The translations under genes and the position numbers were made by a program. DNA of 64,000 bases from Raillietiella orientalis (Eukaryota), in the NCBI GenBank assembly GCA_036172245.1, contig JAYWIR010000014.1, forward strand, positions 1,240,001-1,304,000. The letters are read 5' to 3'. This document shows, piece after piece, positions 37,740 through 61,710 of this stretch (its first letter is position 1; each line of letters opens with the position of its first letter). The notes below the pieces were generated by a model that was not told the origin of the DNA, searched no databases, and saw only the letters and a list, made by a program, of their open reading frames with translations.

Positions 37740-40700
37740 GAGGAAGGACTGTCACTGAGCTCGCACGTGCATTCGCCCGTCCTCTCTCCATCTTGGACTG
37801 CTTCAGGCAGGGAGGCTGAGCATGCTTATAACCTCCTCCTCCTCCCATCACCTCCACGACCCTCGATGCCCCATAGGTCCTCCTCACAACCTGAACTCCG
37901 GGGTGATACTCCGGGGACTCACCCTCTGGAAGCGTGGTCTGCGTCCTCTTCAAAGCCCCCACCCGGCTCAGGGAGTCAGTGGAAGCTTGTACCCTCTCTA
38001 AAATGGGTGAATCCAGGACCTATCCCTCATCCCTTGCTTCCAGCAGGGAAGGAGGTTTCCTCTGGAGACATCGGAAAGGCAGATGACTGCAGGTTGCTGT
38101 GACAAACCAGAGCTCTGCTATCCTCTGGAGCTGCTGCTTCTCTGTCTTCTTCCTGCACTCTTCCTCCTCCCCTCTCCCTCTCTTCCTCTTTCTCCTCACT
38201 TCTCCTCCTCCCCTCCTTTTTTTTCGGTTTGGTGCGCTCGACCGCTGGACGAGAGTGCGTGTCCAAAGGGAGTGGGCGGAGGAGACCGATCGATCTCTGT
38301 CCAAGGATAGAGAGGGGGTCATGCCCTGAGGAACGCCAGGGGGACGAGAAGGGGAGAAGCCCTTTCGCGAGTCACCCTTGCGTCCCTCCAGAGGCAACCC
38401 TCGGAGGCCTGCCTCTGGCCCTTTCGGGACCGAGGCTGTCACTGCCGGAAGGCCCTGGGTGGGACTCAGAGACTTGGGGGTGGGACTCTGGAAGAGTCAA
38501 AGAGGAGAAGAGAAGTAACGTTGCCTCGGGGTTCACCTCCGTGCCCGGGGGATGCTACTCCGCGGTTCCCTCAAGGGAGTTTTCGAACAGGGGAGAGCCA
38601 GCCTCGCTTTTCTGGGAGAAGACGAGAAAGGAAGGCGGGGAGTGAGAGCATCCCTCGCTCACACGCCAAGGGCAAAAGCGCGAAGCTTCCTTGGATATAG
38701 AAATGGACGTCAGATGAGTTCCGATAGGAAAATGGGAAGGATGCGCGAAAATTTCTGCACGCCATCTCTGTCGCAATCGTTCCGAGAGTTCCTGAGTGAT
38801 CGGCAGGAATGACCTTCATTTGACTACGGCGCGAACTGTGGACCACTCCTAGAGAGAACCGAAGGCTCCGTTCCCAGTCCCCTGCAGCTGTTGACGACGT
38901 GCGCTGTTCTTCACTTAGGCAGCACTGCTGCCAACCTCTGAGTAGCTTCAGTAGTCCTTCCTGACGTACGAGGCATCATCGTGGTGGACAGAGGAACACG
39001 GAAAAAAGCTGTCGATATGGTGGAGGACTGATGTGGCCTCCGTCTGCACGCGCTGTCACCGGTTTTCCAGGCGATCCCGAACGCGGGAGAACCGAGGGAC
39101 CGTGGAACGCTCGCCTGAAGTAACGACATACGGTGATGCTCATATTTCTCACCAGCACTTCACCGTCCTCTTTTCTGACGTAAAAATTCAGGGAAATGCC
39201 CAAGTTCCTTTCTTCCCGCTGCAGTAACAACTAAGCAAAGGGTGAACCCTTTGTTTGCTTCCTTGCATCCTCGCTACGAATCCTCCATTTCAGGGTACAC
39301 CCAGCATGTAATTGCTTTCTTCTGATATGCTTTCGCTCGGTGTCAATACTGCTCTTCCTGGAGCGTTGAGATCATTTAGTCCAAGAGACCAACCGATCCG
39401 CACAAGTCACGAAGTCTGGGAGTCGAGCCAGGAGCCACCTTTCTTCCCGTTATAGGCACTTTCGAAAGCGGGTCTTGATGCAGGACGAGAGGGAGGAAGA
39501 CTCCATCCTTACTATTCTAGGGACTCCGGGATGTGTGCCTAACGATGATATCAGGAACAACACCAGTAGAGTGGAATCTGCGGATAGGCTACAAAGCAAC
39601 AGAGAGGATGCAGACTACATGAAACGACAGTATTGAGCGATGAGTCAAACGACATCCCGAGCCTTAAGGAAGAGAAGGAGCTGCCACAAAAGTCATAACT
39701 TTGTGCCAAGAACCCAGACTGAGTTCCAGCACTGTCGATATCTGGAAGAGTACTTAGATGAAGAGAAGGAAAGAAACAGGGCAGGATCTTCAAAGTTCTT
39801 TTAATCTTCACGTCATGACGATTTTATTCCTCTGTACCGTATGGGTTACAAAATTGCTTCCAAAGAGAACGCTCGCATCGCTTGGTACCAATTCTTCTTA
39901 GGTGCCGATGTTCTGAGCGATTCATCCACCAGACCGTCACCCCAATCTGTGGGTGCAGCGTACGTCGCGGACACATTGGATGTTAGAGGAAAATGTAGAC
40001 CACCTCCTCTGTTGTAAAGACGGATTTTCTCAAGAACCGACATCCCGCATGGACTCTTGCACGGCGATGGAGCGGTCCCGGCACACGACACGATGGTACG
40101 AGAGACATTAGCCTTCTCCATCACGGACATCGCGAGCACGCGACAGCACCACCAAGCGAACAACGTGCCGCCAAGGGATTTCGGATTCGCAATCGAGAAA
40201 GAGAGCCGCTGTCCGGATGAGCGCAGCGCGGCACCCAACAGAAGCGATCCAGAAGCACAGAGAGTTCGTACGGAGAAGAGTACGAAGTTCAGTGCGGACT
40301 CCAGAGTGCACAGTCGAAAAGGTTGAAGCTCCTGTCCTGGAATTTTGTTGGTAGCGTTGTAGTTTACACAAACAGAGCCATCCCACTGCTTGTCGAATCT
40401 GGGGAAGATCGGGGTGTAGCCGCACGATCCCCAGCTCTGTCGTCGTTTGTTCGTTTTGGGAATCGCACGCGACCCTACAGAACCAACCGTGCGGGTTCCG
40501 ACGGCTACCTCGACATCCCAATTCTTCGCAGGTGTTCCCTATTCTTATTCTATCTTTGTTCCATCTTTGTTTCTGAACGGATCGTGAATGCTGTTGAAAG
40601 GACAGGCAACGTCCGGGATGGTGGCCATTCTTCTTCCTGCGCGCAGTGGCAAATCCGGACGGTGACGAGCGTCCACTCCGGGGTTGAGCTTAGTGCAGTT

Positions 40701-42700
40701 GACACTTCCCAGCTTTCCGTGATCCAACGCGGTGGGAACGTGTACGAGACTCATCGGCGAGAGAACCGTCCGTACTAATGACTGCATAGCCGAGCTGCTA
40801 GAAGAGCGTTCTACCACATCACCAAGCACAAGATCTGCTCCATGCCGAAACTGAAGCAAGGAAACTTCTGCTGATGGCAAAAGCTTCTGATTCAGAGTGG
40901 AAGTCTGCCCCCTTAAAGACAAAGTCTCTTCTTGACTGGATGAATTTGCAGCCCACAGGTGTTTCGTATTGGCCGTGAAACCTGCTTTCTCCATTCCCTG
41001 AAGAAACACAGCGAAACGGTAAAGCAACGCGTCGTGTCGCCGGATGTTGAGAGGTTGCCATCAACGGCTATTCCGCAAATCCGCATTCCGATCTTTTGCT
41101 TGATAACTCTACAGCTACAATCTTGTTTTCTGTGTGCAACCCAGAAAATGAGACGGTAGTTGTGAGATGCTAAGCTGACCAGGAGGACATTTAGACGGAC
41201 AGAAGGATGACTTTGTAATCTGAAAATAGGATGCACCCTCCCGAAGCAAGAAAGCGACTGGAGTTTGTAGGTAGTTCAGTGCATGGCATGGCTCATCTCC
41301 CATCCTTGTGGCTTTTCTACCATGGAACGCCTCATCTTCTGAAACTGAACTTCCTCCTCATGGCTGCATCGAATTTGCTGCCCCCAGTGACGATCATGGC
41401 TCTCCAACCTTCAACAACCTCATGCATCCACTCTTGATGACGCCTCTGTAACTCGATCTGAGGTGTCTTCCTGTAGTGAATACGGATCAGAGTTCTCTGA
41501 AAGTGGTGAGCCCTACATGAGGGAGTGTTCGGAAGGCGTATGGGTATTCCATGGTTTCGGAAATCTGGGAATCAAGCATCGAGAGCTCCAAGACTGCGAC
41601 ATTCACGCTAGACCCCCGTCTTTCTTTCCCCCCTTAACCACCGTAATTCGATGTCATTCAAGTGTGAAGTGATACTCGATGGATGTCCAAAGCGCAGCCA
41701 CCATCAAATTTGCAAGTTTCGGTGTGTGGAAACGATATTTTTCATCCCAGAGTGCTCAAGAGACCAGCTAGGAAGCTAACCGGCAGCTCCATTTGTGCGG
41801 AAGGAACAGCCAAAGCGATTTTTTCACCATTTCCTCCCTCTGGTGTCTTCAATAAGTGACACCATTGTTGGAGAGATGCCTTTTTATTTGACAAATAAAG
41901 GAAACCAAGCCTTCTTCCCTGATCTTCCTTACCTTCCACTTCCTTTTCAAAATGCCGCCGGGTCCCAACGGCACGCCTTTGTTATTCCAGGGACTGGAAG
42001 CTGGAGAAGACAAGCAGCATTTCTTCCCACGAACGCCCCGAGAGCACAGTGAAAAAAAGAACCTCCTACGTCATTCAAATGTGCTTGGCGAGGGAACTTT
42101 CGACAGCATCCTTTTTTCTAAGCTCTTCCAGAGTGGATGGACATCTGCGTAAAGCACTTCGTGCTGAGGGTGAAGAAATCCTGCAAGAGATCGCGCACTG
42201 GATTCTGCGCAAAAAAAAGTGCCAGATACAAGAGCTTCCGCAGCTTCTTTCAACAAATTCTTGGCGGATCGGTGAAAGGTGGTGCTGGGTGGTGCTAGGT
42301 GCCAAGAACCCAAGGTGGAGTACTCGAAAGCTTCTTCGAAGCAGGAAAGGACGCCGCTTTTGAGTTGCTTCGAGAGTTGGCACTGCAGGGACACGGGAAT
42401 ACAGAGGAAATTCTGCAAACGCACTCAGAGGGAAGCAGGAGACAAACAAACTTTGGAAATCATCAAAAACGGCCGGAGGCTTCCCGGGAACGAGGCTGTT
42501 GGAATGGGATAGCTTGTTGCCAAGCGCGCTTGGCAACGATTCCAGAATTCGCTCCCACACATGAATTTGAATACGAATTAGCAAATGAACGACGCTTGTC
42601 GAAGCAAAGACGAATTAAAAGTTCCACGATAAGAATCACCTTGCGCTCTCATCAAGTAAGTGAGGTTGCGCAAGGATGGTTTCGTAACCTCAAGCGTGTG
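37740..42700 (-). mobile_element. Degenerate chromovirus-like element C (gag?-RT-RNaseH-integrase-chromodomain?)
   Basis: RT: KSHKDGR..C (~41310), HPIFRL, VALPFRCVSS (~41030, cf. VMPFGLxNS), QLGYAVISTDG (~40790). RNaseH: CASGSLLLGAALRSSGQRLSF (~40260), NWYQAMRAF. Integrase: WVYPEMEDS*RGCKE (~39300), ISLNF..TVCRYF, SRSGPQFA (38853-38830), GPGF..LP..DHAS (~38020-37925). GRRRR..ECTCE (~37845-37760) is chromodomain-like. The gag assignment (42700-42080) is weak. Confidence 0.75.
39874..41016 (-). repeat. 1,143-bp near-identical inverted repeat, copy 1 (within element C)
   Basis: Reverse complement of 59892-61034. The ORF-track translations match except YTN/YIN. I saw one substitution (40369 vs 60539). 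Confidence 0.97.
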
Positions 42701-43079
42701 TGGCGAGTGTTGGTGGAGGAGGTGGAGATGCGCGCTTTTGGAACGAGCGCCATTTACTAGGCAGCTGCTGCATCTCAAGCGAGCCTCCACCACTTGGTCT
42801 TGCTGGAAAGTGTGCATCCGATGGGGGGGGGGGCAGTTGTTGTCGCCGACGGGCGAGTTCTTTGTCCGCACAGTCGCTACCGTTGCTGGTAGTTCGCGTG
42901 CATCGCGTGGCTGTGGTTGCTAATGGTTCCTGGGCAGCGACAGTGAGAGAACACCACCGGTGTTTGCAGGCGGAATGGTTTCGACGCGCCTGCGCGGAAA
43001 TACCCGGTCACATTTGACGTGTCGCTGGCAGCGTTCCATTTGCTCGAGTAACAACATTTAATTTATTGGAAAGAATTCC

Positions 43080-44010
43080 TGAGACGTTGCGAAAATGAGA
43101 TGCGACGAGTACTTTGAATGGGAGTAGGCAGAGATGTCGCAAACAATTGATGGGAACTTGAAACTCGAATCAAACGATGTGCGCAGTCTGTGATACCATC
43201 GATGGTTGGTTTTAATTCTTTTAATTTTCATCAGGTATGCGCTATCAGGCATGTATTGACTACGCATATCATCGAGAATGCGTACTGCCTGCAATGATGA
43301 TTAGGGCGGACGCTTTCCATCTCACTTTATGTTCTTTAAGGGAGAAATTGTTGGGAAACTGTCCCTGGGAAGTTCTTGGATGCATCGATATTTGAATCAT
43401 GGATTCTGTCGATTACGAATTGACGTAGATAATTATAGCGCAGTTACCATTTTTTTTTCCTTTGGAAAATCAGCATTATTTTGCTAGAAATTTTTTCGTA
43501 GGCAGTACCGATTCTTCTGTATGTCGTGCATTTTTCAACAAATTCGAAAGAACATATTCTTTTAGCATCAGTGGATCCAGAAAGTTTCCAACAACTGCTA
43601 ATGAGCAAACGGTTTTGTTAAGAAACAAGTTGGATCATGCAAGGAATCTGGGGAAAAAAAAAGATGTGAGTAGGGATGCACTACAGCTAGTCACACTGGC
43701 AATGTGACTAGCTGTTTGGTGATCAACTGTAAAGAAAAGCCAAAAAAGCTCCACAGAACTTAAAGATGCCCATCACAAGGAGAGCTCAGTGTAGAAGGTA
43801 GCGTGTTCTGTAAGCTAAACTTCGAACGGACAGTGGTAGTAATTAGGGTTACTGCCATTTTCTGCACAGTAAAGTTAAGGTGAGGTCTGTAAAGGAGAAT
43901 AGGCGCAGAAGGAAGTGGAGTGTTTTTTTTTTGGATTCACCAAAACATAATCATCATCGTTGCCATTGATCACTGAGCAGAAATGCCTGGAAGGGGTCTT
44001 ACTGAATGGA
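43080..44010 (-). mobile_element. RNaseH / integrase-start fragment L
   Basis: DPFQAFLLSD (~43998) and ELSL*WA..LFWLFFTVDHQ (~43790-43716, cf. ELLAxxWA..FxxxTDH). The HHCC-like remainder is weak. Confidence 0.5.
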
Positions 44011-44159
44011 GTTGGTAACTGAATTACTGGAAGAATTGCTCCTGAAGACAGCCATTGCTGAATGAATCACACACCTGGCAGACGAATCTTGCAGATCATA
44101 ACTAAGGGATTCTTATTATGATCATTTGGCTTTCGTATGAATAAAGCAATCAGAAGGTA

Positions 44160-47100
44160 ATAATGATTCCGTTGTGTACTAATTACTGATACGAGCTCTA
44201 CATTTCAACAACAAGTATGACCTTGAAAAATGAGGTTGGATTTCAGCGAGTCTTAAGTGTTTTATAATCGCATCTCAGTTGCGATTATAAAAATGGAAGC
44301 GAATGGAAAGAGAATTTATTCCTTGAGATTACGGGAGTTTGGAAAAAGATCGCTTTTGTGGGTTTCGTTAGCCCTATCGCGGGGGAGGCACGACTCGTTG
44401 TCGACTGCTTTGAATTGGAGACACCTTGAGTCTACATTGCACAATATCGAATCTCTCTAATACGGATGCGCTATCTTGCAAGTTTCGGATCTTTTTTGAG
44501 TCAAAGAAATATTCAAGAGAACGTTATCTTTGCTCCGGAAGAACTTCACGATGTAGGACAAGGCAATCTGAGTCATTAACGCACTAAACTCCCAGGTAAA
44601 AAAAGGAAAAGAAAAAAGAGACGCATCAGAAAGAAAAAAATGCGATTGTATGAGCGATGCGACTTATCTTAACGAGCAGGGAGGATACATGTAGATGCAC
44701 ATTCTGACTGTAAGAAATTCTCAAACCGAGAAGCTTTGCTCATTTCTTAAATGACGTTTTGCGTATCCGCCTACCTGATTTCGTCTGGTCTTGAGAACTT
44801 GAGGTTCAGTTTGATGAAATTAACAAAAGACTGCAATGAAGGCATACTTTTCATGTGACCCCATCAATTCTGGAAATCACACGCCTCACATATAGAGATC
44901 TGCCAGAGGAGGAAGAAAAAAAAAAAAAAAATGGCATCGAATGCAATGAACGTATTAGTTACTAATGAAACGTAATTCATGCAATTCGATATCATGGTGG
45001 TTACTTTCTTGCAGATGATCAGTTCAATCTATTTCTTTTTTGTGTATACCTGCTTGTTGCTGTACACGGAAAAGCTATGTTTGTTGATAATGATCTCAGC
45101 AAGCATTCAGTGAATGCCAATATTCACAGGTGGAATGACAAATGCATACAAAAATAGATTTTACTTGGTATGGTTGCTTCACTGATCACTGCTGTTTTCT
45201 TCCTGCCTCTTCCAGGAAAGCTGCACAGGTTTTTGCCAATGAAACCTTAGCAGCTGGAATATGCTTCGAAATCCAGAGGCAAATGCAGTTGCAGATGGGC
45301 TTGCAGTGTCCCGTTCGAGCGATCCAAATAAATGCTCCACACTCCCAATGATAATCTTCTTGCTTGGCTTTGAGAAGATGACAGGCTCACGAAAGGGGAA
45401 TAGGTACTTGTCACTAAGCGGATACCAATGCGGGTACTTAATTCCTTAAGATGCTGAAGTGTTTTCTGTTTAACCGAGGAAAGGTCAGCATCTGCTTGTG
45501 AGGCACGAGCAAGGCGTTCAAAACAGTAGGGTGGTATAGGCGGACACTTCACAAGCTCAAAAGAATCTTTCTGAAATAAAACACGAGCCTTTTAAGAAAT
45601 TCAAACACGTCAGCACACAAACTGGGTGTTCATTCTCGTTGCCGTTTGCCCTGGTCTGGGTGTGAAGGGTCCAGAACTAGAAGCCGACAGGAATTTTCTG
45701 AATACAAACAGTCTAAGTTCATCGTTATCCAATGTTATCATACGCAAGTCAGTCTGCGTGAGAATGAAACTCGACCTGCAATGACCATTTAACGTTGGTT
45801 TTCTCCAAGCCATTTGCGAGTGATAGAGAACGTCGAGTCGCACCTTTAACCAAAATTCCATTTGAGATTTCCCGATGTCTTCGACAGGATTGCAGTCCTC
45901 TGCAAGCAGGAGCTTTTCGTAGTAGTTTGTCTGCAAAACAATTTCCGACCCATGAATACGCTGGATGAAAATGTTGTTAGTATCCTTGTAAGCCAAGAAG
46001 AAGTTTTCTCACGAGGAATGATAAACATGAAACACATCATAGCAAGAACAATGAAGCTTTTAATGCTAGTGGAGTGCACTAACAAATAAACGACCACAGC
46101 TACTTTAATTAAGACACGTAAGGTAGCAAACTGAAGTGGAAAATGGGATGGAATTTTAATGAATGCCCACTTTTTTTTTTTCTCGAACGTGTACCAGATA
46201 CTGTTGGTACTAGTGATGAGTGCTTCAATTCTTTATCTGTTGATCTGTTAATGCTATCAAGGCGGTGTAGTTCTTTTCATCTCATTTCCTTCGATGGTAT
46301 CATGCATTCTTTGATTCATCATTTTAATTTTATGGGGATCCTATTTAGTTATCTTATCTGAAAGAGATTATTTTTCAGTAACTTCCTTCATGCTTTTTAG
46401 GTAACGTATATCTTTTCCAACAGGCTGCCTTGCCCAACTTGGGCTAGCCATACTGAAACCCTACAGCAATCACTAACAGTGCTGTTAGTCGTTTTCTCAG
46501 TAACGAGCTTGAAATTCTTTAGACAGATATCGTCAGTGAGCAAATTTGCATGTTCCTTTGCATATTTTAAAAGATATGAAAAAAAAAAAGCACGCTTTGC
46601 AAGCAATAGGAGAGAAAGGAAAAAAAAAGCATAAAACTGCGTTATTTTCGAGACCATCTAAGGCTCTGTTTCATCATGGTCCTCTTCTTGGATTGTCCGT
46701 TTCTCTAGATCATTCAAATCCATTATCTTTTTTCGGTAGGATATAATTCTTCTTCACTCTTTGACCATGGAAGATGTGGAAATCTACGTGGAACACCGTT
46801 ACTACGTTAAATGAATGATTTTGGGATGAAATCCATTTTCGCACTGGAGAGGAGATGGTGGATTCTGAGGAACGTCCACAAACAACTACGTCTTTAATTT
46901 TTTACGTTGCTTCTCAAGTGTTGAATCTTCATCTCGAAAAACTTTGACGAGGATGTTCAAGCGTCTCTGGCAGATGCACCTTCCTTGAGATACCTATCGT
47001 GTCTGCCATTATTTGGCAATCTTCAGAAAGCTCATGTTTACAAAATTAGCTACTAAAGATCCCGTTTCTATAACTGATGCGATAACAAAACGCACTCTTC

Positions 47101-47700
47101 ATTCTTTCACAAAAAGTTCTTTCTTGATTCAAAAGTGGAATTGACTTGGGTGACTTGTAAAATTTGTTACCTCCTCCATCTCAGTTTGCGCAGAGGATGG
47201 ATTTGTATGAGCTGGCATTCGACCAGATATAGAGCACGTCATGCATTAAGAAACTAGCGTTCGAGATGCAAGTGCATTAACGAACAACGAAGAATAATTA
47301 GTGCCTGTTCAAAAATGTTGATTTATATGATCCTTCATTTCAAAGCCATTTCATTTGTAAGTTCATTTTAATTCGCTAACGCCATTTTGAAGGATGTAAT
47401 GACACTGGAATGCCCGTGCGTAATATCCAGGAACCATCCTCAGGAGCAATGGAATGGATATTTCGGTCAACTACACAAGTTTTCAAGAAAAATGGTGCCA
47501 TTCTTGTGTTGTTGATCATCAAAATATCCAAGCCGGACATTCGAATTTTTGATACTTCCTAATGGTTTTACTTTTGCAAACGCAGCTTGCCCTCTAGAAC
47601 TGCAGTCATGTTAGTCAAACCACTGCTTTGTTTTCTGTTCAAGACAAACAACCTAGTTGTGGAATAAAGATTCCCAAAAGTCATGCTGGTGTTTGAGAAG
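44160..47700 (-). mobile_element. AT-rich degenerate chromovirus-like element K (RT-RNaseH-integrase-chromodomain)
   Basis: RT: FLMHDVLYIWS (~47250), FCYRISYRNGI (~47090). RNaseH: NFKLVTEK (46516), RVSVW..IYVT*K. Integrase: FWLKVRLDV, LKELSTRIGIRLVTSTYSP (45450-45394), HLPLDFEAYS, *ADTQKR..FSV (~44770). DAIIKHLR..SYLLLKC (44274-44200) is chromodomain-like. Confidence 0.72.
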
Positions 47701-47869
47701 TTATCTGTACCAAAACCGAGAACGTATGTTGCGCCTAAGAGAAAGCATTATGGGCTGTCCTTCTGATTGAATTGAAAGGTTTCCTTGACAACGGAGTCTT
47801 GTAAATTGAAATGCTCATGATTTGGGAGCGGAGAGAAAACGATAAGCATTTTAGAGTAACCATAAGCTA

Positions 47870-47909
47870 TGCTCTATTCTTGCTTGAAAGTCTACTAAAG
47901 AATAGAGCA
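47870..47909. repeat. Perfect 12-bp inverted repeat with 16-nt spacer
   Basis: tgctctattctt ... aagaatagagca. Confidence 0.9.
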
Positions 47910-49989
47910 CAACTTCCGCCTAGCTTCCTTGCTTACTAGCAATTATTTTTTGACGTACTCCATGTCGAAGAATATAGGATTCAGGGATATAGGATTAATT
48001 TTCAGGAATGTGTTCAAGTACCTACAGCCGAAGAACTCGTTTAGACGGCTGCAGCTACATTCGTAACTTTCAAGTGATTTTTTGCATCTTTTATACCTGG
48101 TGATATAGCACTGGATTTGAGAGGGAATTTTTCAATTGACAGTTGTGTTACGACAAAATTCAGTTCATCTCAAGCTCATCTAACTTCTTAGACGAGAGAA
48201 AGAGAGGAAATGTCTCCAACGGAGGAAACCTTGATTCTCCCCGTAGCACATCATTGATTCAGTTCTGCATCGCCATGTCACATAAAAGAAATCCTTTGAC
48301 ATTCGAACAGCCGAATGAGTTTCTTGATGCAAATTCATTCATGCATCAGAGATACTTGGTCTGCTGAACCTGAGAGGAAATTGCAATGAACATCGTTTTC
48401 TTCGCTATTTTCCTAGCGACAAGAGCATCGGAGTCCACGAAATGAGACGAATATGTTCTCCTGAGTGCACGTAATTATAATGCAAAAACAAAAACATGTT
48501 CCGTGTTTAAAATTCCCCTGATGTGGTCACAGCGCTGTAAAGCATCGCGTCCTGTTCAGTGTAGTTCACGGGATAAATTATGGCTAGAAGCAGAAAAGCA
48601 ATTTCTCTGCCATTGTCACTGAACTGAGTCTTAGAACAGTTTCTCGTTGTGGAACTGGAACTTTCTTAGGGCTTAGACAACACATTTTTCGCGAGCTGCC
48701 TACTTTTCCTTCTAGCAGGGAACGAAAGAGGTGATTAACTTTTGCGCTTCAACCACTGCTGGGATGAAATTTAGCATCACAAATCAGGAAATCAGCGTCC
48801 CCATCAATCACGACCTACAAAAGATGAAAAGGTGCATTTTTGCAAAGGTTGCAGACGAGGCCGAACGCCGACTATGTGCTCTGAAGAAATTTCGGTATCA
48901 GGCATTCAGAAAATGTGGGAAAGTGCAGCGCAAAAATGTCCAATGTAAATAAAGCGTTTATATCTGAAAGAGAATTCCTGGTTCGAAAAAAGTGTGCTTA
49001 CACGAAGATCGCAAGATCCTTCAGGGATGAGAAATCGTAAATTCTTTGCGAGTTTTTTCATCATTCATTAGAACGAAATGAGCACGTCGGATGCATTTTT
49101 CACGCCACTTAGAATGCCCGACACTGTGAGGCATAAATTGGCGCCCATTCTTTTGTATCATTTTGAATTCTCTCGAAAGGAACGTGCTGTGAATAATTGA
49201 TCGAGACATTTCAATATTTGCAGTGAAAGATGCAACAAGATTGGAATGTGCTCACGATGAAGACAAGTTGCGGAGGGCCCCAAATTCCCAAATGCTTTCC
49301 GAAAGCCATTCAAGGAACTAACTTCTTCAAGAAAGTGAAAGGCTAGAAGGCGAAAAGACTCCAGAAATCCTTGGAAAAGTCTTTAAAGTCATGACCGCAG
49401 TTTCAACTTTAGAACGAGCAAAGTATGCATATATCCACGAAGTCCCAGAAGAGTCTTAGGACAGTCACACCAGGTGCACACCCAGGAGCTGCTAAAAAAT
49501 AAAGCATTCAGGAAAACCAACCCCATCACCTGCATGCTGTGTAGTAGGAAAGCACGGGAATCCTCAACTGTTAAAAACTACGTGTGGTGTGCGTTGTGTT
49601 GTTGTCGAAATGAAAGCTGCAAACACAGAACGCACATTTGCTGCGGAGGAGTTTGTTGCTTCCATATTCGTACATCAGAGTGCGGAAAGACGTGAGGAGG
49701 GAGCAGAGGGAAGTAGCTTTCCCGATTCAAGTAAGAACGCTGGTACGACTGCTTTCGTGCATCGAGCCGGATGCTGGATATTTCCACCTGGAAGGAGGGA
49801 GTCATGTGCTCACAGACTCAACGGAAGCGGATCGGGGAATCGTATAGACCTGGGAAAGCAACTTTTGACGCGCTGCTATGGAAACAGCCCAATCGCTCTA
49901 TGAGAGAATTCTCTATGCAACTTCGATCGCGTTTCGAAAACGGAAAAACGCGCAGGCTCCGAGAATAAGGTGGCCAACCAAAGAGCTCG

Positions 49990-52900
49990 ATCTTGCTGTG
50001 CGCGCGTGTTGGACAGCATGCACAGACGTGACACGTTTCTGCCTCGAGCGATACTTTCGGATGAGTCGGCTATTCATGTACCAGGGCGGGCTCATCTCCA
50101 CGGAGTTGGAACTCAAGGCTCCTGACAATCCATGAGTCACGCGAGAAAGCTGGAAGAGAATCTGGAAGATGAACCTCTTGTGCGATCCGACTCATGAACT
50201 GCGTGCTGAGATCCTTCTCTAGTATGTGAATGGCACGCAAGAGATCGCATTCATGAATGAGCTGGAAAGATGTGTGAGGTCACATGCCTAAGTGCAGCCG
50301 CAGGACAGGACGGAGCACCTTTATGCCAGTCTTCTGCCATGGAGAGCGTTCCTGATGACGCACTTTCTGGCCTAATGCATGGATGGACACCTACCTGTCA
50401 ACGCGGTGTCTAATGATCGCAGCAAACATACTCCGATAGGTGCACGAATGGAAACCGATCGCTGCTTGAGCGTCACCATAGCAATGAGGACTCACCCTGA
50501 GCAAGCTTCTGTTCCTTCTAAATTTTAGAGAGCAGTCAGAGAGAGCACGTGCCTCCTTTGTCAGTATGTTGTCATTCCGAGACGCCTTCCGTTGCGCGTC
50601 CGCGGCAGTCCATTGACGAAGGGACGGCGCCACCAAGAAGCAACCGAAGATGGCCGCGATTGCTTTCTGGGTGGCGGTTCCTTCGCTTCAGGTCCACTGA
50701 ACTCGCAGTGAGGTTTCTCAATCATTATTTGAGAAGGAAAGCAAGCCAAAGAACAGCCCTTCTTATACTCGAGAAACTTGTCCGGTATGTGAGCTCAGGC
50801 TCACAAGGCGAGGTGCTCCGCAAACAGCTCGTCCTGCTTTCCTTATGACGTTGTCATGCAACCGGTTGAAAGCGTACGAACGCTTCTGTCAGGCACGATA
50901 CAGCCCCAGTCGTTTCCAGATTGGGAATCCCGGTGACTCGAAGGATCCGCTGTCAAGCAGGAGTTGATGTGGGCAACGTGAGAAGAAAGCATGGCCCAGA
51001 AGCCTCCAATGAAGAGCAGTTCTCTGATGGAGAGGAAAAAGGATCTCCGAGCTCGGCACGTAAGGAGTTCAGTTCCAAGAGGAAGGGGGAGGATGCCAGC
51101 GGAGTTTTGGATTAGAATAGGGTGGAAGCTGCTGGACCAAGAGCCCTCGGCCAGGAGAGGAAAACCTTCGAACTGAAAATGGAACTTGTTCCCTCCTTAC
51201 CTCATTCAATGCTCTGCCGTCACCCTTCTGAGAGTACACCAAAGGCCCTAAAATGGACTGAGACGGCCTCAGCTAATGACTTCTCCTGAATGCAAGAAAG
51301 TATGGACTTGCATCAAGCAGGGTTGCACACTCAGTGCTTCCCGTTCCGAATTCTTGACATGGATGAACGCCAATGTTCCAAGGAATTGGCGTCCTGGATC
51401 ATCTCTTTGCAGTGCATCCTCCTTTCCTGATCACTCACCAGCCGAGGGGAAGGCAGAAAGCTCTTCCCACTGTTGTCCTTCACGCGATCCTCTAAGATGC
51501 AGGCGCAAATGCCTTAGTTCATTGCAACGAGAATACAGAAGAGGAGCAGCCGATTCCTTCGCAGTGGTGTCCAGCCTGCTACTTCAGATCAGGAAGAGCC
51601 GAGTTTCTCAGACAAGAGCCGTTTTCCCAGGGAGCAGCTAAATGTTCAGCAAGAGACTTCATCCTGGGTTCGAAGCTTCCAGATCGATATACGCAGACAT
51701 GGAGGACAGCAAAACAAAGCAAAGTCCTCGGAAGACTAGTCCGCTCTGGGCTTTCTACGCAGGAAGCTGAAAAAAAGGATATAAGATCTCGGTAACTGAC
51801 AAGAAAGCATATCGTCCCTCTAGCAGAGAGAGTCCTTTTCTCGGAGGCAGTAAGGGTGGTGTTTATGGCAAGAGGGAGCTAGTGAGTCGTGATGACCCTG
51901 GCTTCGTGAAAGAGACGAGAAGGTTTTTCTAGGGTTTTCTACCACGGAGGAGAAGGACCCTATGTCTTTGTTAGGAATTTCAGAACTTCTCCTTTCCCTC
52001 ATTATATATGGAAAAAATCCCCGAGAAATGTACACATAATCCTTTAGGAAAGAGGACGAAAAACAATCTGCTTGGGTTCATTCCCTGCATTACTGACTAG
52101 AAGAGGAAACTTTGCAAAAAGCTAGACTTCTGCTTTTCCAGGTCCTTCTCTTCCTTCTAGGGAAAGGGTTGGAGCGAAAGTAGAGGAGGAAACAAGGGGT
52201 CGGTGAAAAACGCTGCTGGAGTCTTCAGCTGTGGCCAGTTCAGATGTTTCACTAGAAGAGTATTGCGAGGGATCCTAGAAGCAGAAAATTGATTGGAATG
52301 GGAGGAAACTTCCTATCCTGCAAGGGGGCAAGAAAAAAGCAACGGTGATGCGGTCTCTCTCTCGGCTTCTCGGCCATCTGAAAATCCAAGAGAGAAGCAC
52401 AGCACAAGGCTGTCTGCCTTATGGCCTACATGATGCTCTCAGTCCTTATTTAGTGCATCCGAGTTTGTGAAGGTGCATTCCAGGACTTTCACAGTTCATG
52501 TGAACGTCCAGGGCTAGAAACGTCGACTTTCTGTCTCCTAGACTGAACGGCTCGTTCAACCTAAGTACATCTTTGCCAACTTAGAATAAGAAGAAACAAA
52601 AGGTCACCTTCCAGATATCGCTCCCTAGGGACCTCTAATACCAAGGTTAGGGCTACTGGAGTGCTGGAAATGCATCGACCTCCATACCTCAGCAGTGCTC
52701 GTGAAGCAAGAGCGCAAAAGGAGTGATGGAGGTTCCGCGCGATAACCTATCAAGAGATGATGAGTGCGGTTTGGGAGCCATGAGGAGCATTGTATACAAA
52801 AAGAAGCATGCAGTCCATGGAGACCACTGTTAGTAAATGTCAAGCAGGTGAACAGATGATCAAGGACGATAGATGCTCCTTACTGAGAAAATCCGAGCCG

Positions 52901-54250
52901 AACTCATGATGGCTCTACAGTCCACACTGACATTCTCTTCTACATTCAATGTTCTTGAAGGCTTGACAGCGTTTCCTCCTCTGATGCTCTCTTAGGTGAC
53001 ATGCAGTTCCCAAGAAATAAGAAGCATTCAGTTTCTCTTCTGAGTTCTCTGTAGACCCACTTCTGAAAGGGAACGACATCGTCTTCTCGACTATTTCTTC
53101 GGCCGACGATTTGCCTATGGGCCATGTAACATAAATGTAGAAGGGAAGTAGGAGTGATTCCGAGGCGTGAATGGCTTATGCTGAGCCCTGACGCTAAAAG
53201 TGAGACTTAAGATGACTCAGTGGAGAAGTAAGCAGGAATCTGATCTTCCGGTTTCTACAAGAGTTTTTCACGAAAATGCCGAAAAGGAGATCTACAGTAC
53301 GCGTCTCGAGGCCACAGGGACCACAGTTTGCAATGCGGAAGGTCTTACAGAAGACATGTTCCTTGAGTGTCACGGCTTCAGAACTCGTAACTAAAGTCAA
53401 AGGCGTGAGTCAGACTGCAGTTGCTCAGCCTAAAGAGTATATCAAGTTCAAAGTCCAAGAAGCGATCTTCTTGCAGTGCTACAGGGAATGTGCTGCTTTC
53501 TATGAGTTCGCAGTTCTGCAGGCTCACTGCAACACCTCGACTAGAAAGTGCCCTGGGATCATCAGATGCTGTTGCCTCAAGGCTACTTTTGTCAGTGTAA
53601 GCAATATTGGCTGCAAATTTGCCAGCCCTCTTTTTATACTTGCGATGCAAGCGGTCCTCTTTGCTTCGAGATCGGCTTCCACAGAAGATGAACACTGTTC
53701 GGAGTTCTGCTTGGATCTAAAATGGGTCCATGAGCACGCCCATGCCGCAAAGGCACGAGGAGAATTCATGCTCCAAAAAAAAGGCTTTCTGCTCTTCTGC
53801 ACTACGATCTCTGCGAATCGACGATGCTGCTCGCCTTTATAAGCCGATCGAATGGTAACGTTTCGGTGGATTTCTTGATTCATCCCTTATGATCTAGGAA
53901 AGCTCTGCAAATTTTTCGAGTTTCATGACCCACCTGGTAACCTGCAAACTTCCTCAGAATCTTTACCATGAGAAGTTTCCTTGTTTTCATCGTCAAGGAG
54001 ATACCAAACAAGGTCCTTGGGACATCGACATATGAAAGCTCTCAAGAGTGACGGCACCCGGTGACTCGTGCACTCATTCGGATTCCTTGTACTAACTTCC
54101 TTCCAACCTTTTTCTGACTATTCACTTTCACGTTCGGCGTCTTTAAAATGCTCTGCATCTGCTACCTCTTTCTGGCAAGAAGGCAGCTAATTCTCGTTTC
54201 CTTTTGGTTCTTCCTTGAAAACAGGTGGAGTCTCTCGTTTGTCACGTTTT
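49990..54250 (+). mobile_element. Degenerate Ty3/Gypsy element M (PR-RT-RNaseH-integrase-chromodomain?)
   Basis: PR: RVLDS..TFL (~50003). RT: ASAAVH*RRDG (~50600), FNALP (~51205), GVLDHLF (~51390), KC..FILG (~51640). RNaseH end: SYPARGQEKSNGDAVS (~52310). Integrase: EMHRPPY (~52667), VSKCQAGEQ (52829), SRPQGPQFA (53306), EFAVLQAHCNTSTRKCP (~53503), HEHA, ANRR. The ORF 53276-53842 covers the integrase core. Confidence 0.72.
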
Positions 54251-54369
54251 TTTCTGTAGTTGTGAGCTGGTTGAAGGCTGAATCGTGGACTGAAAAAGAT
54301 AGCCCTACCTCTGTAACACTATGGAATAGGCCGGAGCAAAATGCTTGACTACAGCTTAAAATGATTTAA

Positions 54370-54930
54370 ACTGCTCTCGAATACAGCCATTCAACAGTTG
54401 CAAAAGTTTTCGCCAGTGTAGTGTACTGTGCAGCAGCAGCCCTGGAAACAACCTTGCTTCGTTGTTTATATTCCTTGAAGAGAGTATGAATCCTGAAAGA
54501 GCTCCATGCGCATAAAACACCGAGTGTTTGCAAAAGCACGCGTCTAATAACCTGACGGGCTCTGAGATCCCGAGAAATGGATTCTGGGAGACGAGCCAGC
54601 AGTGTCCATCTCTGTGCTTCGTATTCCAAATCCCCTATCCGTACTTTGATCTGCCACTTTAAGAGAAATGGGATGCAGAGCTATCACATGGCATTCAAAA
54701 ACATGCCAGCTCTGTAGAGCCTGCATAAACACATGCGTTTTTCTTTTAAAGTTGACATTTGTGAAGATATAAATACGAGCATGCTTGCCACACAAACGTA
54801 GCACAGCAAATTCCAAAGTGAATTTTGTAAGAGTGAAAGTTGCAAGGAAATAATTCCATGAAATTTTCCTCTGTGTAGAATTTCGTGAGCATTGTGGTCA
54901 CTCTCGAAGGATGCATTCGTCATGAACTGC
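54370..54930 (-). mobile_element. RT fragment O
   Basis: ARIYIFTNVNFKRKTH (~54780, cf. GAxxFSxLDLKxxYH), then RWTLLARLPESI..QVIRRVLLQTLGVLC (ORF 54366-54629, cf. YEWxxLPxGL..QxxMxxVL..LGxxC). Confidence 0.45.
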
Positions 54931-56189
54931 AGCACTGTTACTAAATATCTACTCAGTCCCTAATGCACAGTAGCAACGGGGGAGAGATGGCAACTACTTG
55001 ATTCTTCAAGGAGTAGAACATCTCTCTGAAAACTTTCTCAGCAGAACAAAAAAATAATCTGAATGCAAAGAATGTAACGGTGTTCGAGCATTTGTTAAAT
55101 TCTTTATTCTGTAGTCAACGTTCCTCACATTCCAAAGCAAGTTATGTCATCTGTCGAGAAGGTTCTGCTGGCATTCGAATCCTCAACAGCTGGTTTTATT
55201 TCGCATTGTCTTCATGTTCGATGATTCCATCTTCTGCTTTTATTGTGGGCCATTTCCTTTTGTGAACAAGAGTTTGCTTTGCAGCAAAAATTTGCCTTTC
55301 TCAAGTCCTGCTAGCTGACTCAAGACTTCGGATCAATCAGTTGCTTCTGTACTCTCACATGCACTTCGCAAAGGCTCGTCTTGCCACAATTTTCAAATTC
55401 AGGTGCTCCTCAGCTGTAGATGCAAATAGGAGATAAGGTTTTGGCACATCTTTGAATTGGTCAGGCAAAAATCTTAGCTTGCAACTTTCCCTTTGTGTCA
55501 ACATCTTTGCGGGCGGCATGACTGCCATTACCTAGAAGAATCCTTTCTCTCTTTCAATCAACTTGATACTTCCTAAACAATTTTTTGTAAGGACACTGTC
55601 ATAACTGATTTCTTAGAAGAACTGCAAGGGATCTCGATCTGAAAAACAGAGAACTTTTGAAAACTCGAGTTGAATCCATGAGTATAGAAAGATTTCAGGG
55701 TTGAAATTCAATATGAATCGGAAAGATGCTTATATGATTTAATGAGGAAGAGAAGGCGTTGGAAATCAGAATATGAAATGTTGGATGTGTTAGCTAGGTT
55801 CAGTCAGCATTTTATCGATGTCAAGGAATCTCAGGAATTTTTTGAACGATTTTTTCCAAGGAGCAATGCAGAAGTGAAGGGAAATGTCTGACATTTTTCT
55901 GTGCATTCCAGTGCTCACAAGATTTTTTTTTCTTTTAAAATGTAAACATCTGAAACATTTGATAGACAATCAGAAGGCTCCAGAGAATAATTTTACTATA
56001 GCCATTTCCTTTTTTCATTGGTATCTTTTAAAAGACATAATGTAGAGTGAATGGATGGGGAGAGATCGATGAAACTAGATGGTGCAAATAAACACAGGTT
56101 CCCTGATAATATGAGGGATCACTAACTCGATTCTTCAACCCTTCGATCTCTATGGCTTAAGAACAAAACACTCTCACGAGAAATGCTGT

Positions 56190-58560
56190 TTTCATCCTTC
56201 CAGAGAGTATCTAGGAGATGTCTCTTGAATCCTGTTGCTAATTGTTCACGAGAAGAAACCTTGATTGAGAATTTCACTTTCCTTGATGGACAGGAATTCG
56301 TTCCATTTCCAGCACTTTCTCAAGTTGATTGGAAGACATTCTACTGGTCTGTGCCCTGTAGTAAAAGTTTCCTTTATTATCAACACAACATTCTCTCTGA
56401 GACTGAGGTTATTTGGAATCAGTAATTCAGTGCTTTCAAATGATAGGAATAGTTCCGGAATTCCCCTTTCGAGGAAAAAAGGAAAATCTATCCTGCTTGA
56501 ATTCTTAGAACACAGGGAAAGCAACGAGGAATATGAGACTCCATTGAGTTTCGTGCTCATTTCAGAATCTTGTTGTTTTAAGGACGATGTAGACCTTGTA
56601 GGTGGTCTCCACGAGACAGATTTATGATGGAGTTCCCTGTTGAGCATCAGAAGTCAACAAAAAAAAACCTTTATTGTCTCATGAAGTCAAATCTGTCTAA
56701 GGAATGGAAGCAGGAGATTTCCATCCTGTATGGGAAAAACACTAGTAAAGTGAATTTCGGCTTCAAACAGGAAACTGATAAGAAGCTCACGAGCTGCGTC
56801 TCTTCGTGTGTGTGCAAACTACTGCTGATTATGCAAGTCGAGAAATTTTTCCTAGGGATTCCCTATCACTTTCTTCAAAAGATGAAGGAATCATAGAAGC
56901 CTTAATGAGCCCCTATTTACGATTCATCCTCTTTGATTTTGAGTCTTTAAAAAATCAACGGTGTAAGCAAATCTTCTGTAAGAAATTCGAAAGCCGGCAT
57001 GGACAAATGTAGGCGAAATCTGATTTTCAGGGATACAAAGTAAAATTCCATCAGAGATCTTACCATTCCATGACGGCTGTCTTCAGCATCTACCTAATCA
57101 AAATCTTAGAAAAGTAGGACAATTTGCTGCTCATGCAAGCTGTAGCTCATGAATGAGTGGAAATGTGCACGGCCCACATCACCTCGAAAACGAGAGGTGA
57201 AGCATCTAGGTATAAAGGCTGACTTTATACCTAGATGGACCTAGCTATGAGGTTTCTCCTCAGGACGCACATTCAAATGAAAAAGTGCTCAGTGAGGAAA
57301 GAATGAGAAATTCCAGTAAAGGTTTCCTCTCGCCAACTTGAAGACGACGGACCGCTTCAAGAAAGGAGTCATACATCCGCCTACAAAAATGGGATCCGAC
57401 TTGGAGTGTTTTGCTCCGAGGGTAGCCGTGCCCATCACACTTCTAGTGTACTGGAGAAAGGCAGTCAAGCAGAGGATCTGTTCATGCATTGCTCCTATTC
57501 TTCACTCTGCGTGCATTACTTCCACATATTTTTCAAAAGCCCCCTTTCAATCATAAACTCTGTTGCTCAGTAAAACAAAACCAATAGAGATCGTTCGAAC
57601 AGACGGATTTATTTTTTTTATTTCTCAAGAGATTTCAAATGGAGGAATCACGTGGTCTGCTTCGCATCTTTTGAAAAACATTCATTTCCAAAAGTCTTGC
57701 AGTGCACAGTTGATGCGGCAATTTCAGTGCCATGGCTACCTGGAGTTTCATCTCAGCTCTCGCTTGCTTATCTGACGTGACCGTGCAGTCCTCTCTCAGA
57801 ATCGTTACTCTCGAGCTCGCTCGGTACCATGCTGGGCATGGTGTTCCCGAAAAGAGCCCACTCTGGAACCGTCACGAATCAGAAAGCAGCTTTGCATAAA
57901 GAAGCGTCCATTCCCTCACGGATTTTCCAATTTTTCTTCGGGGGTTGCGGTTTGAAACAATAGACGGCCCAACCGTTCCTGCGTTTCAGCGTCGAGAATG
58001 TACCTGCGATGAGAAATCCACCTCATGTGAGCCCCCAAGGGAGTCTCCTCTCTGGAGAGGGAGAGAATTTTCAGCCGTGTTCCGTTTCCTCACGAAGAAC
58101 ATACCGAAGGAAATGCTCTTCGGGCTCGCTTCAACTACTTCCTCTGGCCGTGCATAAAATCTCTTCAGCAACCACAAAGTTCAAGGTAAAAGTGATGTAG
58201 GCGGGCAGTGTGGGATTGTTCAGGAAGAAACGACCTCTGACACTTATTTTGGATATGCCCATATAAGACCACAGGAGCATACGTCATGCTCGTTTCGTAA
58301 TGATCGACAGTCCAACGGTCTCTGGACCGCAAGTCAGTGTTCATAAAAGCGAACAAACAGGAAAATGAGGATATCTCTTGGAATTGTGGAAGATCACCGT
58401 GTAGCTATTCAAATTGTGAGCGATTTTCTTGGTTTGGCATTAACGCTACAGAATCCAAATTCAACATTCCTCGGAAGGAAATGCAAAGGACACTGATTTT
58501 AGAAAAAGAAGACAAGGGAGAAGCTTTGTATCGGCACAGTGGTCTTCCTTATTGAACTTA
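56190..58560 (-). mobile_element. Degenerate Ty3/Gypsy element N (RT-RNaseH-integrase)
   Basis: RT: FLPRNVE (58480), AF..RWTV..MTYAP (~58350-58273), FYLELCGC*RDF, PWH*NC. RNaseH: KLARG..VRPEETS*LGPSR (~57340-57230). Integrase: RGIPELFLS (56467), TTGHRP, WNEFL, TSPRYSLEG. Confidence 0.65.
57203..57237. repeat. Perfect 15-bp inverted repeat with 5-nt spacer
   Basis: catctaggtataaag-gctga-ctttatacctagatg. Confidence 0.95.
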
Positions 58561-59599
58561 TATCCAAAGTGATTCAAAGACGCATTCCGAAGGGTGAGTT
58601 TTTGCTGAAGATAAGCCATAAAGAGGCATTCTCTGGGAGCTGAAGTACCTAGGGCATGGAAAAGAAAAAAATCAGAAAGTAGGACTGGGGACTAGAACAC
58701 GATCATTAAGAGTTGGGAGAATACCTGGAAATGCTGACAGCATTAAGAACGAGAGAAATTGATCACGGGACGTTTTCATTGAGACTTCCTAACACTGATC
58801 CTTAGGACTGATTTGCTATGAAGAAAATGGAAGAAATTTTTCAGGGACTCTCCATTAGATACTCTCAAAATCAAGCAAGAAAGAAGACTAACAAGAAAAA
58901 AATTTCGGTCCGCAGTTGCATCTAAGAGTGTCAGCGATAAGATTTCGTTCAACTTGTTAGAGTTTATTCGTGTTGGAAGGATGGATGCGGAAGATGAATG
59001 CCGGATTTTTATAGCTATTTTCTTATGTATTCTTGGTGCTCGTGTTCCTTGAGAGAAGCTCTCTCAAGTGCCTTTCAAAGCTCACTACCCTTGAAGAAAG
59101 GTTAGAAAAACTATAGGGTGGAATCTGTTCTTCATCCCTCAAAGATCAAGACATGCATTCATTGAAAGGAATGCAAGTCTTAACTAAACGTTGCTCGAGT
59201 TCTTTCGAGCTTCTCGTCTTTATTTTTTCCTGAACCTAGCTTTCAGATTACAAACAGGCCCACTAATCCAGAGGCAACTTGTTTCATTGAATTCTTTTTT
59301 CTCGAGTCATATCTCTAGACAAGACCAGGGAAATAGAAAAAGATTTCTCCCGCGAATCGATGTAATGATTTACTTTTGAATCTTTGAATATGCCACAGCT
59401 GATCCAAAGGAAACGAAGCCACTGATATATTGCATGCCTCAAGCATCCTCCATAGTAACAAAAACCAAGCTTCTGGAAGTGGACTGAAAATTTCATATGT
59501 ACCCGTTAATTAAGAAAACTATGATCTAAACATTCATACTCCCACTCCTTCCTTTAAGCCAATTTCATGCTTTCCAGCCGACAAGATAGGAAGTTGCAC

Positions 59600-61710
59600 A
59601 GGAACCCTGGGAACATCCAAAAGTTGTGCCGCATTCCTCAGCATCTTCGGGTCTTACAGCTCTTTGCGAGCAGAAACCCATGGCAAATCAACAGATTAGG
59701 ATTGATTTTCGTTTTGCCCGACGGGTGTCGCTAAACGTCAAAGTGCAGTGAAAATGGGCAAAGACTCAGAACACACAGCTCTGCTCGAACGCAGCATAGG
59801 ATGAAATTGCATCTTTACTTTGACAAAGTTTATGCTTTCACTAAAAGGCCAAATTTTCACCGAGTACTCAAGTAGCCCTAAGAGGAAACTTTTTCGCTGT
59901 GTTTCTTCAGGGAATGGAGAAAGCAGGTTTCACGGCCAATACGAAACACCTGTGGGCTGCAAATTCATCCAGTCAAGAAGAGACTTTGTCTTTAAGGGGG
60001 CAGACTTCCACTCTGAATCAGAAGCTTTTGCCATCAGCAGAAGTTTCCTTGCTTCAGTTTCGGCATGGAGCAGATCTTGTGCTTGGTGATGTGGTAGAAC
60101 GCTCTTCTAGCAGCTCGGCTATGCAGTCATTAGTACGGACGGTTCTCTCGCCGATGAGTCTCGTACACGTTCCCACCGCGTTGGATCACGGAAAGCTGGG
60201 AAGTGTCAACTGCACTAAGCTCAACCCCGGAGTGGACGCTCGTCACCGTCCGGATTTGCCACTGCGCGCAGGAAGAAGAATGGCCACCATCCCGGACGTT
60301 GCCTGTCCTTTCAACAGCATTCACGATCCGTTCAGAAACAAAGATGGAACAAAGATAGAATAAGAATAGGGAACACCTGCGAAGAATTGGGATGTCGAGG
60401 TAGCCGTCGGAACCCGCACGGTTGGTTCTGTAGGGTCGCGTGCGATTCCCAAAACGAACAAACGACGACAGAGCTGGGGATCGTGCGGCTACACCCCGAT
60501 CTTCCCCAGATTCGACAAGCAGTGGGATGGCTCTGTTTATGTAAACTACAACGCTACCAACAAAATTCCAGGACAGGAGCTTCAACCTTTTCGACTGTGC
60601 ACTCTGGAGTCCGCACTGAACTTCGTACTCTTCTCCGTACGAACTCTCTGTGCTTCTGGATCGCTTCTGTTGGGTGCCGCGCTGCGCTCATCCGGACAGC
60701 GGCTCTCTTTCTCGATTGCGAATCCGAAATCCCTTGGCGGCACGTTGTTCGCTTGGTGGTGCTGTCGCGTGCTCGCGATGTCCGTGATGGAGAAGGCTAA
60801 TGTCTCTCGTACCATCGTGTCGTGTGCCGGGACCGCTCCATCGCCGTGCAAGAGTCCATGCGGGATGTCGGTTCTTGAGAAAATCCGTCTTTACAACAGA
60901 GGAGGTGGTCTACATTTTCCTCTAACATCCAATGTGTCCGCGACGTACGCTGCACCCACAGATTGGGGTGACGGTCTGGTGGATGAATCGCTCAGAACAT
61001 CGGCACCTAAGAAGAATTGGTACCAAGCGATGCGGACGTAGACAGAGGTTCTTTAGAAGCGGTTTTATTATCCATACCTTCGTGGGGCTGGATTTTATAA
61101 CAGCAAGGATTTTATAACCTCTTTGGAGAACAACAAAATGTGAGAATACCAAGATATTGAAGTTTAAAAGGATCTGCCACCATTATTATCTTTAGTTCTC
61201 TCTCATTCAGGAAGTAGAGCTTGTTTGAAGATGTTTCAGCAATTTTGAGCAGTTGCAGAACCTCGTAGTTCTTTGAGTTACAGCATATTAATGAGAAAAT
61301 AACGATTAGGTTTCTCAGAGTAAGAAGTCAAGGCAGGTCAGGCTAGTTCCTTATTTTTTTTTGAATATGTATCCTAGAAGGCTTTATTTATGCATTGGAA
61401 TAGGCAAGATGCCTGGAAAGCATCGCTTCTGGAACTAATGTGGAAGAAATCCAAATATGCTGTCGAGCTTCCTTGACCGAGGATTGCACTGCTTGCATTT
61501 ACCAAAGGGAACAAAGATAACTCAGATGTCAAGTACAAATTCGTAATTTCTCTAAAGGGAAGGCTGAATGAGTTTGTTTAACCTGAAATACTCATCATCC
61601 TCTATTTCTTCATGAAAAGCCAAGATTCACACAACCTTTCAACTTAAAAGTCCATTTTTCTGCTTGTTTGTTTGTCGTTATTGAAGGAGTCTCCCAAACA
61701 TTTCGTCTTC
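59600..61710 (+). mobile_element. Mosaic Ty3/Gypsy element D (own RT start + block shared with C + own RNaseH end and integrase start)
   Basis: QKP..IRIDFRF (~59670-59715, cf. KPxGxxRxCIDFR), then the block 59892-61034 shared with C, then FIIHTFVG..TARIL (61063-61114, RNaseH end), DCTAC (61482) and LFVVIEGVSQ (~61667). Confidence 0.65.
59892..61034 (+). repeat. 1,143-bp near-identical inverted repeat, copy 2 (within element D)
   Basis: Starts tttcgctgtgtttcttcag and ends taccaagcgatgcg. Identity to 39874-41016 stops abruptly at both ends. Confidence 0.97.

Follow-up and report, generated by a model that had tools for sequence, protein, structure and literature searches.

The palindromes of the primate sex chromosomes undergo arm-to-arm, GC-biased gene conversion (GC, guanine plus cytosine), as described in the sections of the reports drawn on here (PMC8981503, PMC3723533). 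A second group of related systems belongs to DNA repair: one-sided strand invasion or synthesis-dependent strand annealing (SDSA) completed by end joining, and template switching by microhomology-mediated break-induced replication (MMBIR) or fork stalling and template switching (FoSTeS), figure as known outcomes in the parts consulted of PMC7407515 and of PMC9299229, the latter referring to Puchta 1998. These are the systems closest to a pair of inverted 1.14-kb arms in a 64,000-nucleotide stretch of the Raillietiella orientalis genome (contig JAYWIR010000014.1, positions 1,240,001 to 1,304,000, assembly GCA_036172245.1). This whole stretch is called the window, and all positions are given in its own coordinates. 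The arms are C (39874..41016, minus strand) and D (59892..61034, plus strand), and their shared sequence is referred to as the block. An earlier note on this DNA, made from the letters alone, had described C and D as long-dead, diverged retroelements and the block as a piece of C pasted in register into D. In the account favoured here the pair is a small, low-copy inverted duplication, and non-allelic gene conversion may still homogenise its inner 1.14 kb, a reading in which both the conversion and the old age are deduced from sequence and to which we give a probability of about 0.45. Both the structure and the process are already known: the pair is a small inverted duplicate of an ordinary kind, in arthropod DNA that resists annotation.

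Blastn aligns 59892-61034 with the reverse complement of 39874-41016 at 99.913% identity over 1143 nt, a match far beyond chance. The base-by-base check agrees, with a single mismatch, A at 60539 in D (plus strand) against G at 40369 in C on the aligned strand, so that the block coordinates and the one substitution reported in the earlier note are correct. A repeat search of 36-64 kb returns this as the sole inverted pair, with bounds of 39869-41016 and 59892-61039 and with 18,875 nt separating the arms, and self-blastn finds only two copies of the block in the window. Both ends are abrupt: 10 of the 12 positions preceding 59892 differ between the copies, while to the right of the block they differ at 61035 and 61036, after which the register is lost. 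That both copies carry the same inactivating stops holds as claimed, and trivially so, since the DNA is identical. The spacer between the arms (41017..59891, 18.9 kb) has mutually dissimilar ends and no Pfam domain in its open reading frames (ORFs) of at least 90 aa.

In overall form the pair resembles the primate X and Y palindromes, which in the passages of PMC8981503 and PMC3723533 used here share with it inverted arms, a unique spacer, an arm identity of at least 99.9% and sharply bounded arms; the arms are also GC-richer than the flanks, though at C by a small margin. It departs from them in scale and content: the arms measure 1.14 kb against tens of kb to Mb in the primate cases, and they contain no genes. 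Moreover, the DNA at hand is not known as sex-chromosomal, and conversion would here be deduced from one genome.

The features that speak for copying between pre-existing relatives lie just past the outer ends of the arms. On this side the two copies differ by an indel of 8-10 nt, beyond which 22 of 28 nt are identical (61050-61077 against the reverse complement of 39839-39866). This match beside the breakpoint, pointed out in the earlier note, is real: among 4978 random window pairs of 60-nt segments none reached 22, the maximum being 20. Farther out, roughly 80 nt align at about 64% identity, with gaps, between D 61127-61206 and C 39833-39758, and this alignment beats all 395 real-pair controls when the search covers the first 150 nt. 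Alignments of the outer flanks anchored at the junction gave scores reached by 21/1000, 18/998, 10/994, 2/992 and 22/991 controls at 60, 120, 180, 240 and 400 nt, respectively, and the score of the local alignment of the 400-nt outer flanks was reached by 0/200 shuffles. Consistently, a lenient blastn of 53-64 kb against 33-47 kb extends the main alignment to 59892-61077 versus 41016-39839; it yields no further colinear match, the next best having an E value of 0.18. The outer margin also holds a 12-nt tandem duplication, at 61090 and 61107, that is present in D only. We conclude from these alignments that older homology continues past the outer junction for about 115 nt in C and about 170 nt in D, with D-specific insertions. 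The outer margin of arm D is 61035..61206 (plus strand), and its older, diverged counterpart is the outer margin of arm C, 39758..39873 (minus strand). The flank segments recur nowhere else in the window.

The same margins bear on whether the pair is an artefact of assembly, with one real copy placed twice or a mis-join creating the second. This is quite improbable: one base separates the copies, and their four junctions are all different in sequence, a 1.1-kb inverted repeat 19 kb away is not the usual form of a hairpin or collapse artefact, and diverged similarity at the outer ends is a biological signature that no assembler would create.

Identity within the arms (one mismatch in 1143) is far above that of the adjoining homologous margin (22/28, then about 64%), and the indel between the copies lies precisely at the point where the identical tract ends. 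Near-identity that stops abruptly beside older similarity argues for copying between pre-existing relatives and not for a plain new duplication; where young identity abuts old homology, the classical interpretation is a conversion tract within an older duplicate. The proposed sequence of events begins with arms of 1.14 kb around an 18.9-kb spacer, in DNA matching no known protein or RNA family. The original inverted duplication would be old, its outer 115-170 nt having drifted to roughly 64-78% similarity with indels, while the inner 1143 nt would have been kept alike, or very recently made alike, by arm-to-arm gene conversion. The conversion tract would end at the 8-10 nt indel (61035-61047), and the outer margin may have decayed because the indel isolated it and it was too short to recombine alone. 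The inner boundary (59892 in D, 41016 in C) would be the end of the originally duplicated segment. The earlier note's proposal of gene conversion or copying between loci is therefore retained in part: it is the best account of abrupt 99.9% identity beside older similarity, with the retroelement partners named for it left unsupported. The unusual step that the note had invoked, homeologous conversion between strongly diverged partners, is not required if the arms never diverged.

Conversion of the GC-biased kind would leave an excess of GC and of CpG in the arms over the flanks at both loci; the favoured reading needs no unusual step and predicts a mild excess of this kind. The block has a GC content of 0.53 and an observed/expected (o/e) CpG ratio of 1.05. 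The 1-kb flanks of C have GC contents of 0.50 and 0.48 with CpG o/e values of 0.81 and 0.69, and those of D have GC contents of 0.41 and 0.42 with CpG o/e values of 0.72 and 0.54, which bears out the earlier observation that D's flanks are more AT-rich than the block. Arm D is accordingly a GC-rich block within AT-richer surroundings, and the composition of arm C, likely the original context of the block, is continuous with that of 35.9-39.3 kb. A second-order Markov model gives the block a log-likelihood ratio of +0.022 per base towards the C side. Three of the six held-out C-side chunks resemble it (+0.023 to +0.027) and the others score +0.013, -0.004 and -0.032, while all five D-side chunks (-0.021 to +0.008) lie below the block. 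Hence it is reasonable to hold that the block sequence belongs to the C side. The proposal of C as the likely donor stands to the extent that GC content and the Markov comparison point to the C side as the home of the block.

Several observations count against an old duplicate kept alike by conversion. The inner flanks have no residual similarity: their best 28-mer shares 13 matches against a control mean of 13.7, and of about 1000 controls 672-866 equal or exceed their junction-anchored scores. Since the inner flanks are dissimilar, the boundary of the duplication must coincide exactly with the end of the identical tract. On the outer side, the similarity past the 22/28 match is modest, and its signal fades as the search is enlarged, with 7/392 controls matching it at 250 nt and 26/391 at 400 nt; the sharing of exact 7-mers between the outer flanks is not above that of random pairs either (8 against a mean of 5.8, with 24% of controls reaching 8). 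As for composition, the block exceeds the immediate flanks of C in GC by only about 5-7 points, and its GC-richness does not extend to its first 150 nt. The local alignment of the inner flanks points the same way as their other comparisons, being no better over 400 nt than shuffles, 171/200 of which reach its score. Older homology thus borders the identical tract on its outer side only, instead of on both sides as in a conversion tract within a longer duplicate, a pattern that the conversion family accommodates only where the original duplication stopped at the inner boundary.

This asymmetry is what a one-off templated copy from C into D would leave, and such a copy is the main rival. It would have been a recent, single repair event: a break in D, one-sided invasion or template switching into C near the old outer patch, the copying of about 1.14 kb, and an inner end joined without homology. 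One junction looks homologous and the other lacks homology, as this account expects, and the composition of the block suits the C side and not the surroundings of D. Moreover, the 8-10 extra nt of D at the outer junction and the nearby D-only 12-nt tandem duplication resemble filler or slippage. The required steps have precedents, since repair is known to proceed by invasion with end joining, by non-allelic homologous recombination (NAHR) between similar but non-identical repeats and by microhomology-mediated template switching, according to the parts of PMC7407515 and PMC9299229 on which we draw. The likeness to one-sided invasion or SDSA with end joining, as far as those parts describe it, extends to the unequal junctions, of which only one lies in similar sequence while the other lacks homology, and to a kb-scale stretch with a nearby ectopic donor; the likeness to templated repair further includes the added bases and the small duplication beside one junction of D. 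The locus differs from the systems described there in that its patch is 64-78% alike, its other junction shows no microhomology and the insertion into D is itself putative.

The same details weigh on the rival. Strand invasion would be poorly served by a patch of about 120-170 nt at 64-78% similarity, and if microhomology alone were used, the extended old similarity by the junction would be an unexplained coincidence. At the inner junction no microhomology is seen, positions -1 and -2 differing between the copies, and the outer patch does not recur in the window, so nothing there marks it as a dispersed repeat. Taken together, these points make the single templated copy unlikely, though with an appreciable share of the probability. 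Its more general form, in which a patch of about 120-170 nt at 64-78% similarity is enough to seed a kb-scale ectopic copy from C to D in the germline and homeologous remnants in this arthropod routinely nucleate one-sided templated copying, building mosaic relics, is doubtful and somewhat less probable. One variant, a scrambled templated filler at the outer junction, was considered and dropped: three shared words of at least 9 nt were found against a mean of 0.45, lying on scattered diagonals, and, as total 7-mer sharing is not above controls, the idea is not relied on.

The favoured reading departs from the earlier description of the locus in what the arms are taken to be. According to that description, C and D are dead, diverged elements with reverse transcriptase (RT) and RNase H sequences, and the 1.14 kb of C lies at the homologous position in D, its ends falling on RT and RNase H motifs. 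Some observations lean this way: the outer flank retains some older similarity, one frame of the block is nearly open, and a 38-column stretch resembles copia RNase H (hhalign E=0.04, probability 1.3%). Nevertheless, this reading is highly improbable, as the results of the searches for such elements are negative. Pfam was searched with six-frame translations of 36-45 kb and 56-64 kb in which stops were replaced by X; the 12 read-through translations matched 0 families at E<=0.01, and six translations in all, covering 3.3 kb around each copy in the orientation claimed, matched 0 families at E<=10. None of the 87 stop-to-stop ORFs of at least 90 aa in 34.4-64 kb meets a curated Pfam cut-off, and no RT, RNase H, integrase, endonuclease or transposase is found by Pfam in the block or within several kb of it. 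The motifs read by eye in the block and its flanks consequently find no counterpart in any RT or RNase H model, whether in the block, in D's flanks or in C's. The letters IDFR ahead of the block are indeed present, about 65 codons upstream and in the same frame, with three stops intervening and no support from a model.

The architecture of a retroelement is equally missing. No direct-repeat family of at least 40 nt occurs in 36-64 kb, and self-blastn of the window gives no direct pair near C or D, so that there are no long terminal repeats (LTRs). Repeat searches and reading of the sequence found at the block ends no terminal inverted repeat (TIR), target-site duplication (TSD), LTR, A-tail, microsatellite tail, direct terminal repeat or tandem repeat, in agreement with the earlier note as regards TIR, TSD and poly-A. 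Tandem Repeats Finder reports 0 arrays in 36-64 kb, and Rfam at gathering thresholds reports 0 matches in the window. The inner flanks are unrelated, and the register of the supposed patch cannot be shown; because these flanks are as unlike as random pairs and the outer flank alone keeps similarity, the block is not an in-register patch within a diverged homologue. The template switch by RT offered as an alternative origin is without support because no RT was found. In sum, membership of the two copies in a retroelement is supported by nothing here.

The near-open frame deserves separate treatment. Only 2 stops interrupt the 380 codons of one frame of the block, so few being seen in 0/2000 shuffles, and equal openness occurs in 2/315 sliding windows across the 64 kb; this hints at a former coding sequence. 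Codon-position GC contents of 0.541, 0.507 and 0.545 reveal no periodicity in this frame. Its read-through of 404 codons has no relative at E<=0.01 among 6267 word-sharing candidates, and phmmer against 1.84 billion representatives returns two matches, at E 6.6e-7 and 2e-5: P0001, a Sushi-repeat protein, and P0002, which consists of five tandem fragments of copia-type RVT_2. Both are repeat-inflated, because one short stretch is counted 7 or 5 times.

The stretch matching P0002 is similar to the part of copia RNase H that surrounds the DADWAGD motif, and this lead was followed with a set of 120 listed copia-type polyproteins, 119 of which (without P0002) served for tblastn, 25 for a profile and 24 for hhalign. 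On the window, tblastn of the 119 proteins gave a best E value of 0.02 anywhere and three weak high-scoring segment pairs (HSPs) per arm. The profile, run on the six-frame translation, gave two marginal matches of negative score, neither in nor beside an arm, and hence no domain near either copy; on the real frame it scored -4.0 bits, equalled or bettered by 32/300 shuffles. The comparison by hhalign with the alignment of 24 polyproteins gave nothing beyond the single 38-column stretch already mentioned. An alignment to copia motifs made by eye was withdrawn, as the profile, shuffle and hhalign tests were negative. Compared with the pol region of LTR retrotransposons (RVT_1 and RT_RNaseH in Ty3/gypsy, RVT_2 in Ty1/copia), the block shares a long near-open frame and a faint 38-residue copia RNase H likeness, and it lacks LTRs and any match to RT, RNase H, integrase, protease or gag models, its profile score being at the level of shuffles.

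A broader alternative makes the block a piece or a copy of some mobile element, for example a truncated non-LTR element or a non-autonomous element of unknown kind, inserted independently at both sites. Near-identical copies in contexts that are unrelated on the inner side would fit such insertions, and so would a frame with 2 stops in 380 codons, as a hint of former coding, and a weak zf-RVT-like ORF 1.8 kb away (62841-63122, minus strand), which is below cut-off. Against this, the block ends show no TIR, TSD, LTR, A-tail or microsatellite tail; RT, endonuclease, transposase and integrase are absent from the block and from several kb around it in the Pfam searches; and the near-open frame has no credible relatives in the two protein searches described above. 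Both long ORFs are unrecognisable in a protein atlas, scoring 1043 and 1373 where 91/100 known-family proteins reach 2300, and the viral contigs contain no relative of the 230-aa ORF. Older similarity past the outer end is unexpected for independent insertions. An index of other windows holds no look-alike of the block, a result of little weight, and a 39-nt word of the block has 0 matches in metagenome contigs, which speaks weakly against a high-copy element. Independent insertion is improbable on this evidence. Within the block, an internal tandem duplication suggested by short repeats spaced 630-670 nt was also rejected: the halves align no better than shuffles (108/200 reach the score), and lenient self-blastn of the block reveals no period.

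The practical value of the analysis is a correction: an annotation of the region as retroelement RT/RNase H is to be avoided, and the supposed in-register patch is not to count as evidence for homeologous conversion between dead elements. As it stands the locus matters little, being one more small inverted duplicate with near-identical arms. It would gain interest if the D site proved empty in relatives, in which case nature would have supplied a clean example of one-sided templated repair that began in very diverged sequence; were one-sided repair true, it could inform on the activity of ectopic repair in this lineage. Inverted arms could, in addition, permit flipping of the 18.9-kb spacer.

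Some minor features of the window remain to be described. The zf-RVT-like ORF at 62841-63122 (minus strand), 1.8 kb outside the block, scores 15.4 bits (E=0.031) against a cut-off of 27.5 and is the sole retroelement-flavoured Pfam result among the 87 ORFs of 34.4-64 kb. A C..C...H...C pattern is typical of the tails of ORF2 in long interspersed nuclear elements (LINEs), and this ORF may represent the decayed 3' end of a LINE that runs off towards 64 kb, unrelated to the block. Weak clusters of HSPs with plant copia proteins lie at 5362-5478 (plus strand, 32 HSPs), 1936-2130 (plus strand, 11 HSPs) and 43518-44036 (minus strand, 16 HSPs), with E values of 0.02-0.3. The HSPs within them are not independent, because the query proteins are mutually related, and the clusters are not confirmed by the copia profile; they may be chance or very decayed retroelement remains.

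The 99 ORFs of at least 90 aa in 1-34 kb also reach no Pfam cut-off, one of them having two sub-threshold matches. In total, the window contains 186 stop-to-stop ORFs of this length, 0 of which meet a Pfam cut-off, where a rough expectation for its base composition is about 80. In the spacer, about 100 nt from the inner boundary of arm C, an imperfect palindrome of about 78 nt (41098-41175) is 68% self-complementary (E 4.8e-5 in a small search); a role of such hairpin-prone DNA in breakage, given a duplication boundary so close by, is speculation. At E<=1e-5, sensitive self-blastn over the full window yields two pairs, the block pair and one in direct orientation, about 650 nt long and 66% identical (5725-6367 and 21657-22313), unrelated to the block and probably two old copies of some repeat. 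Finally, the GC-rich stretches at 13.8-16.5 kb and 35-39 kb contain frames nearly without stops.

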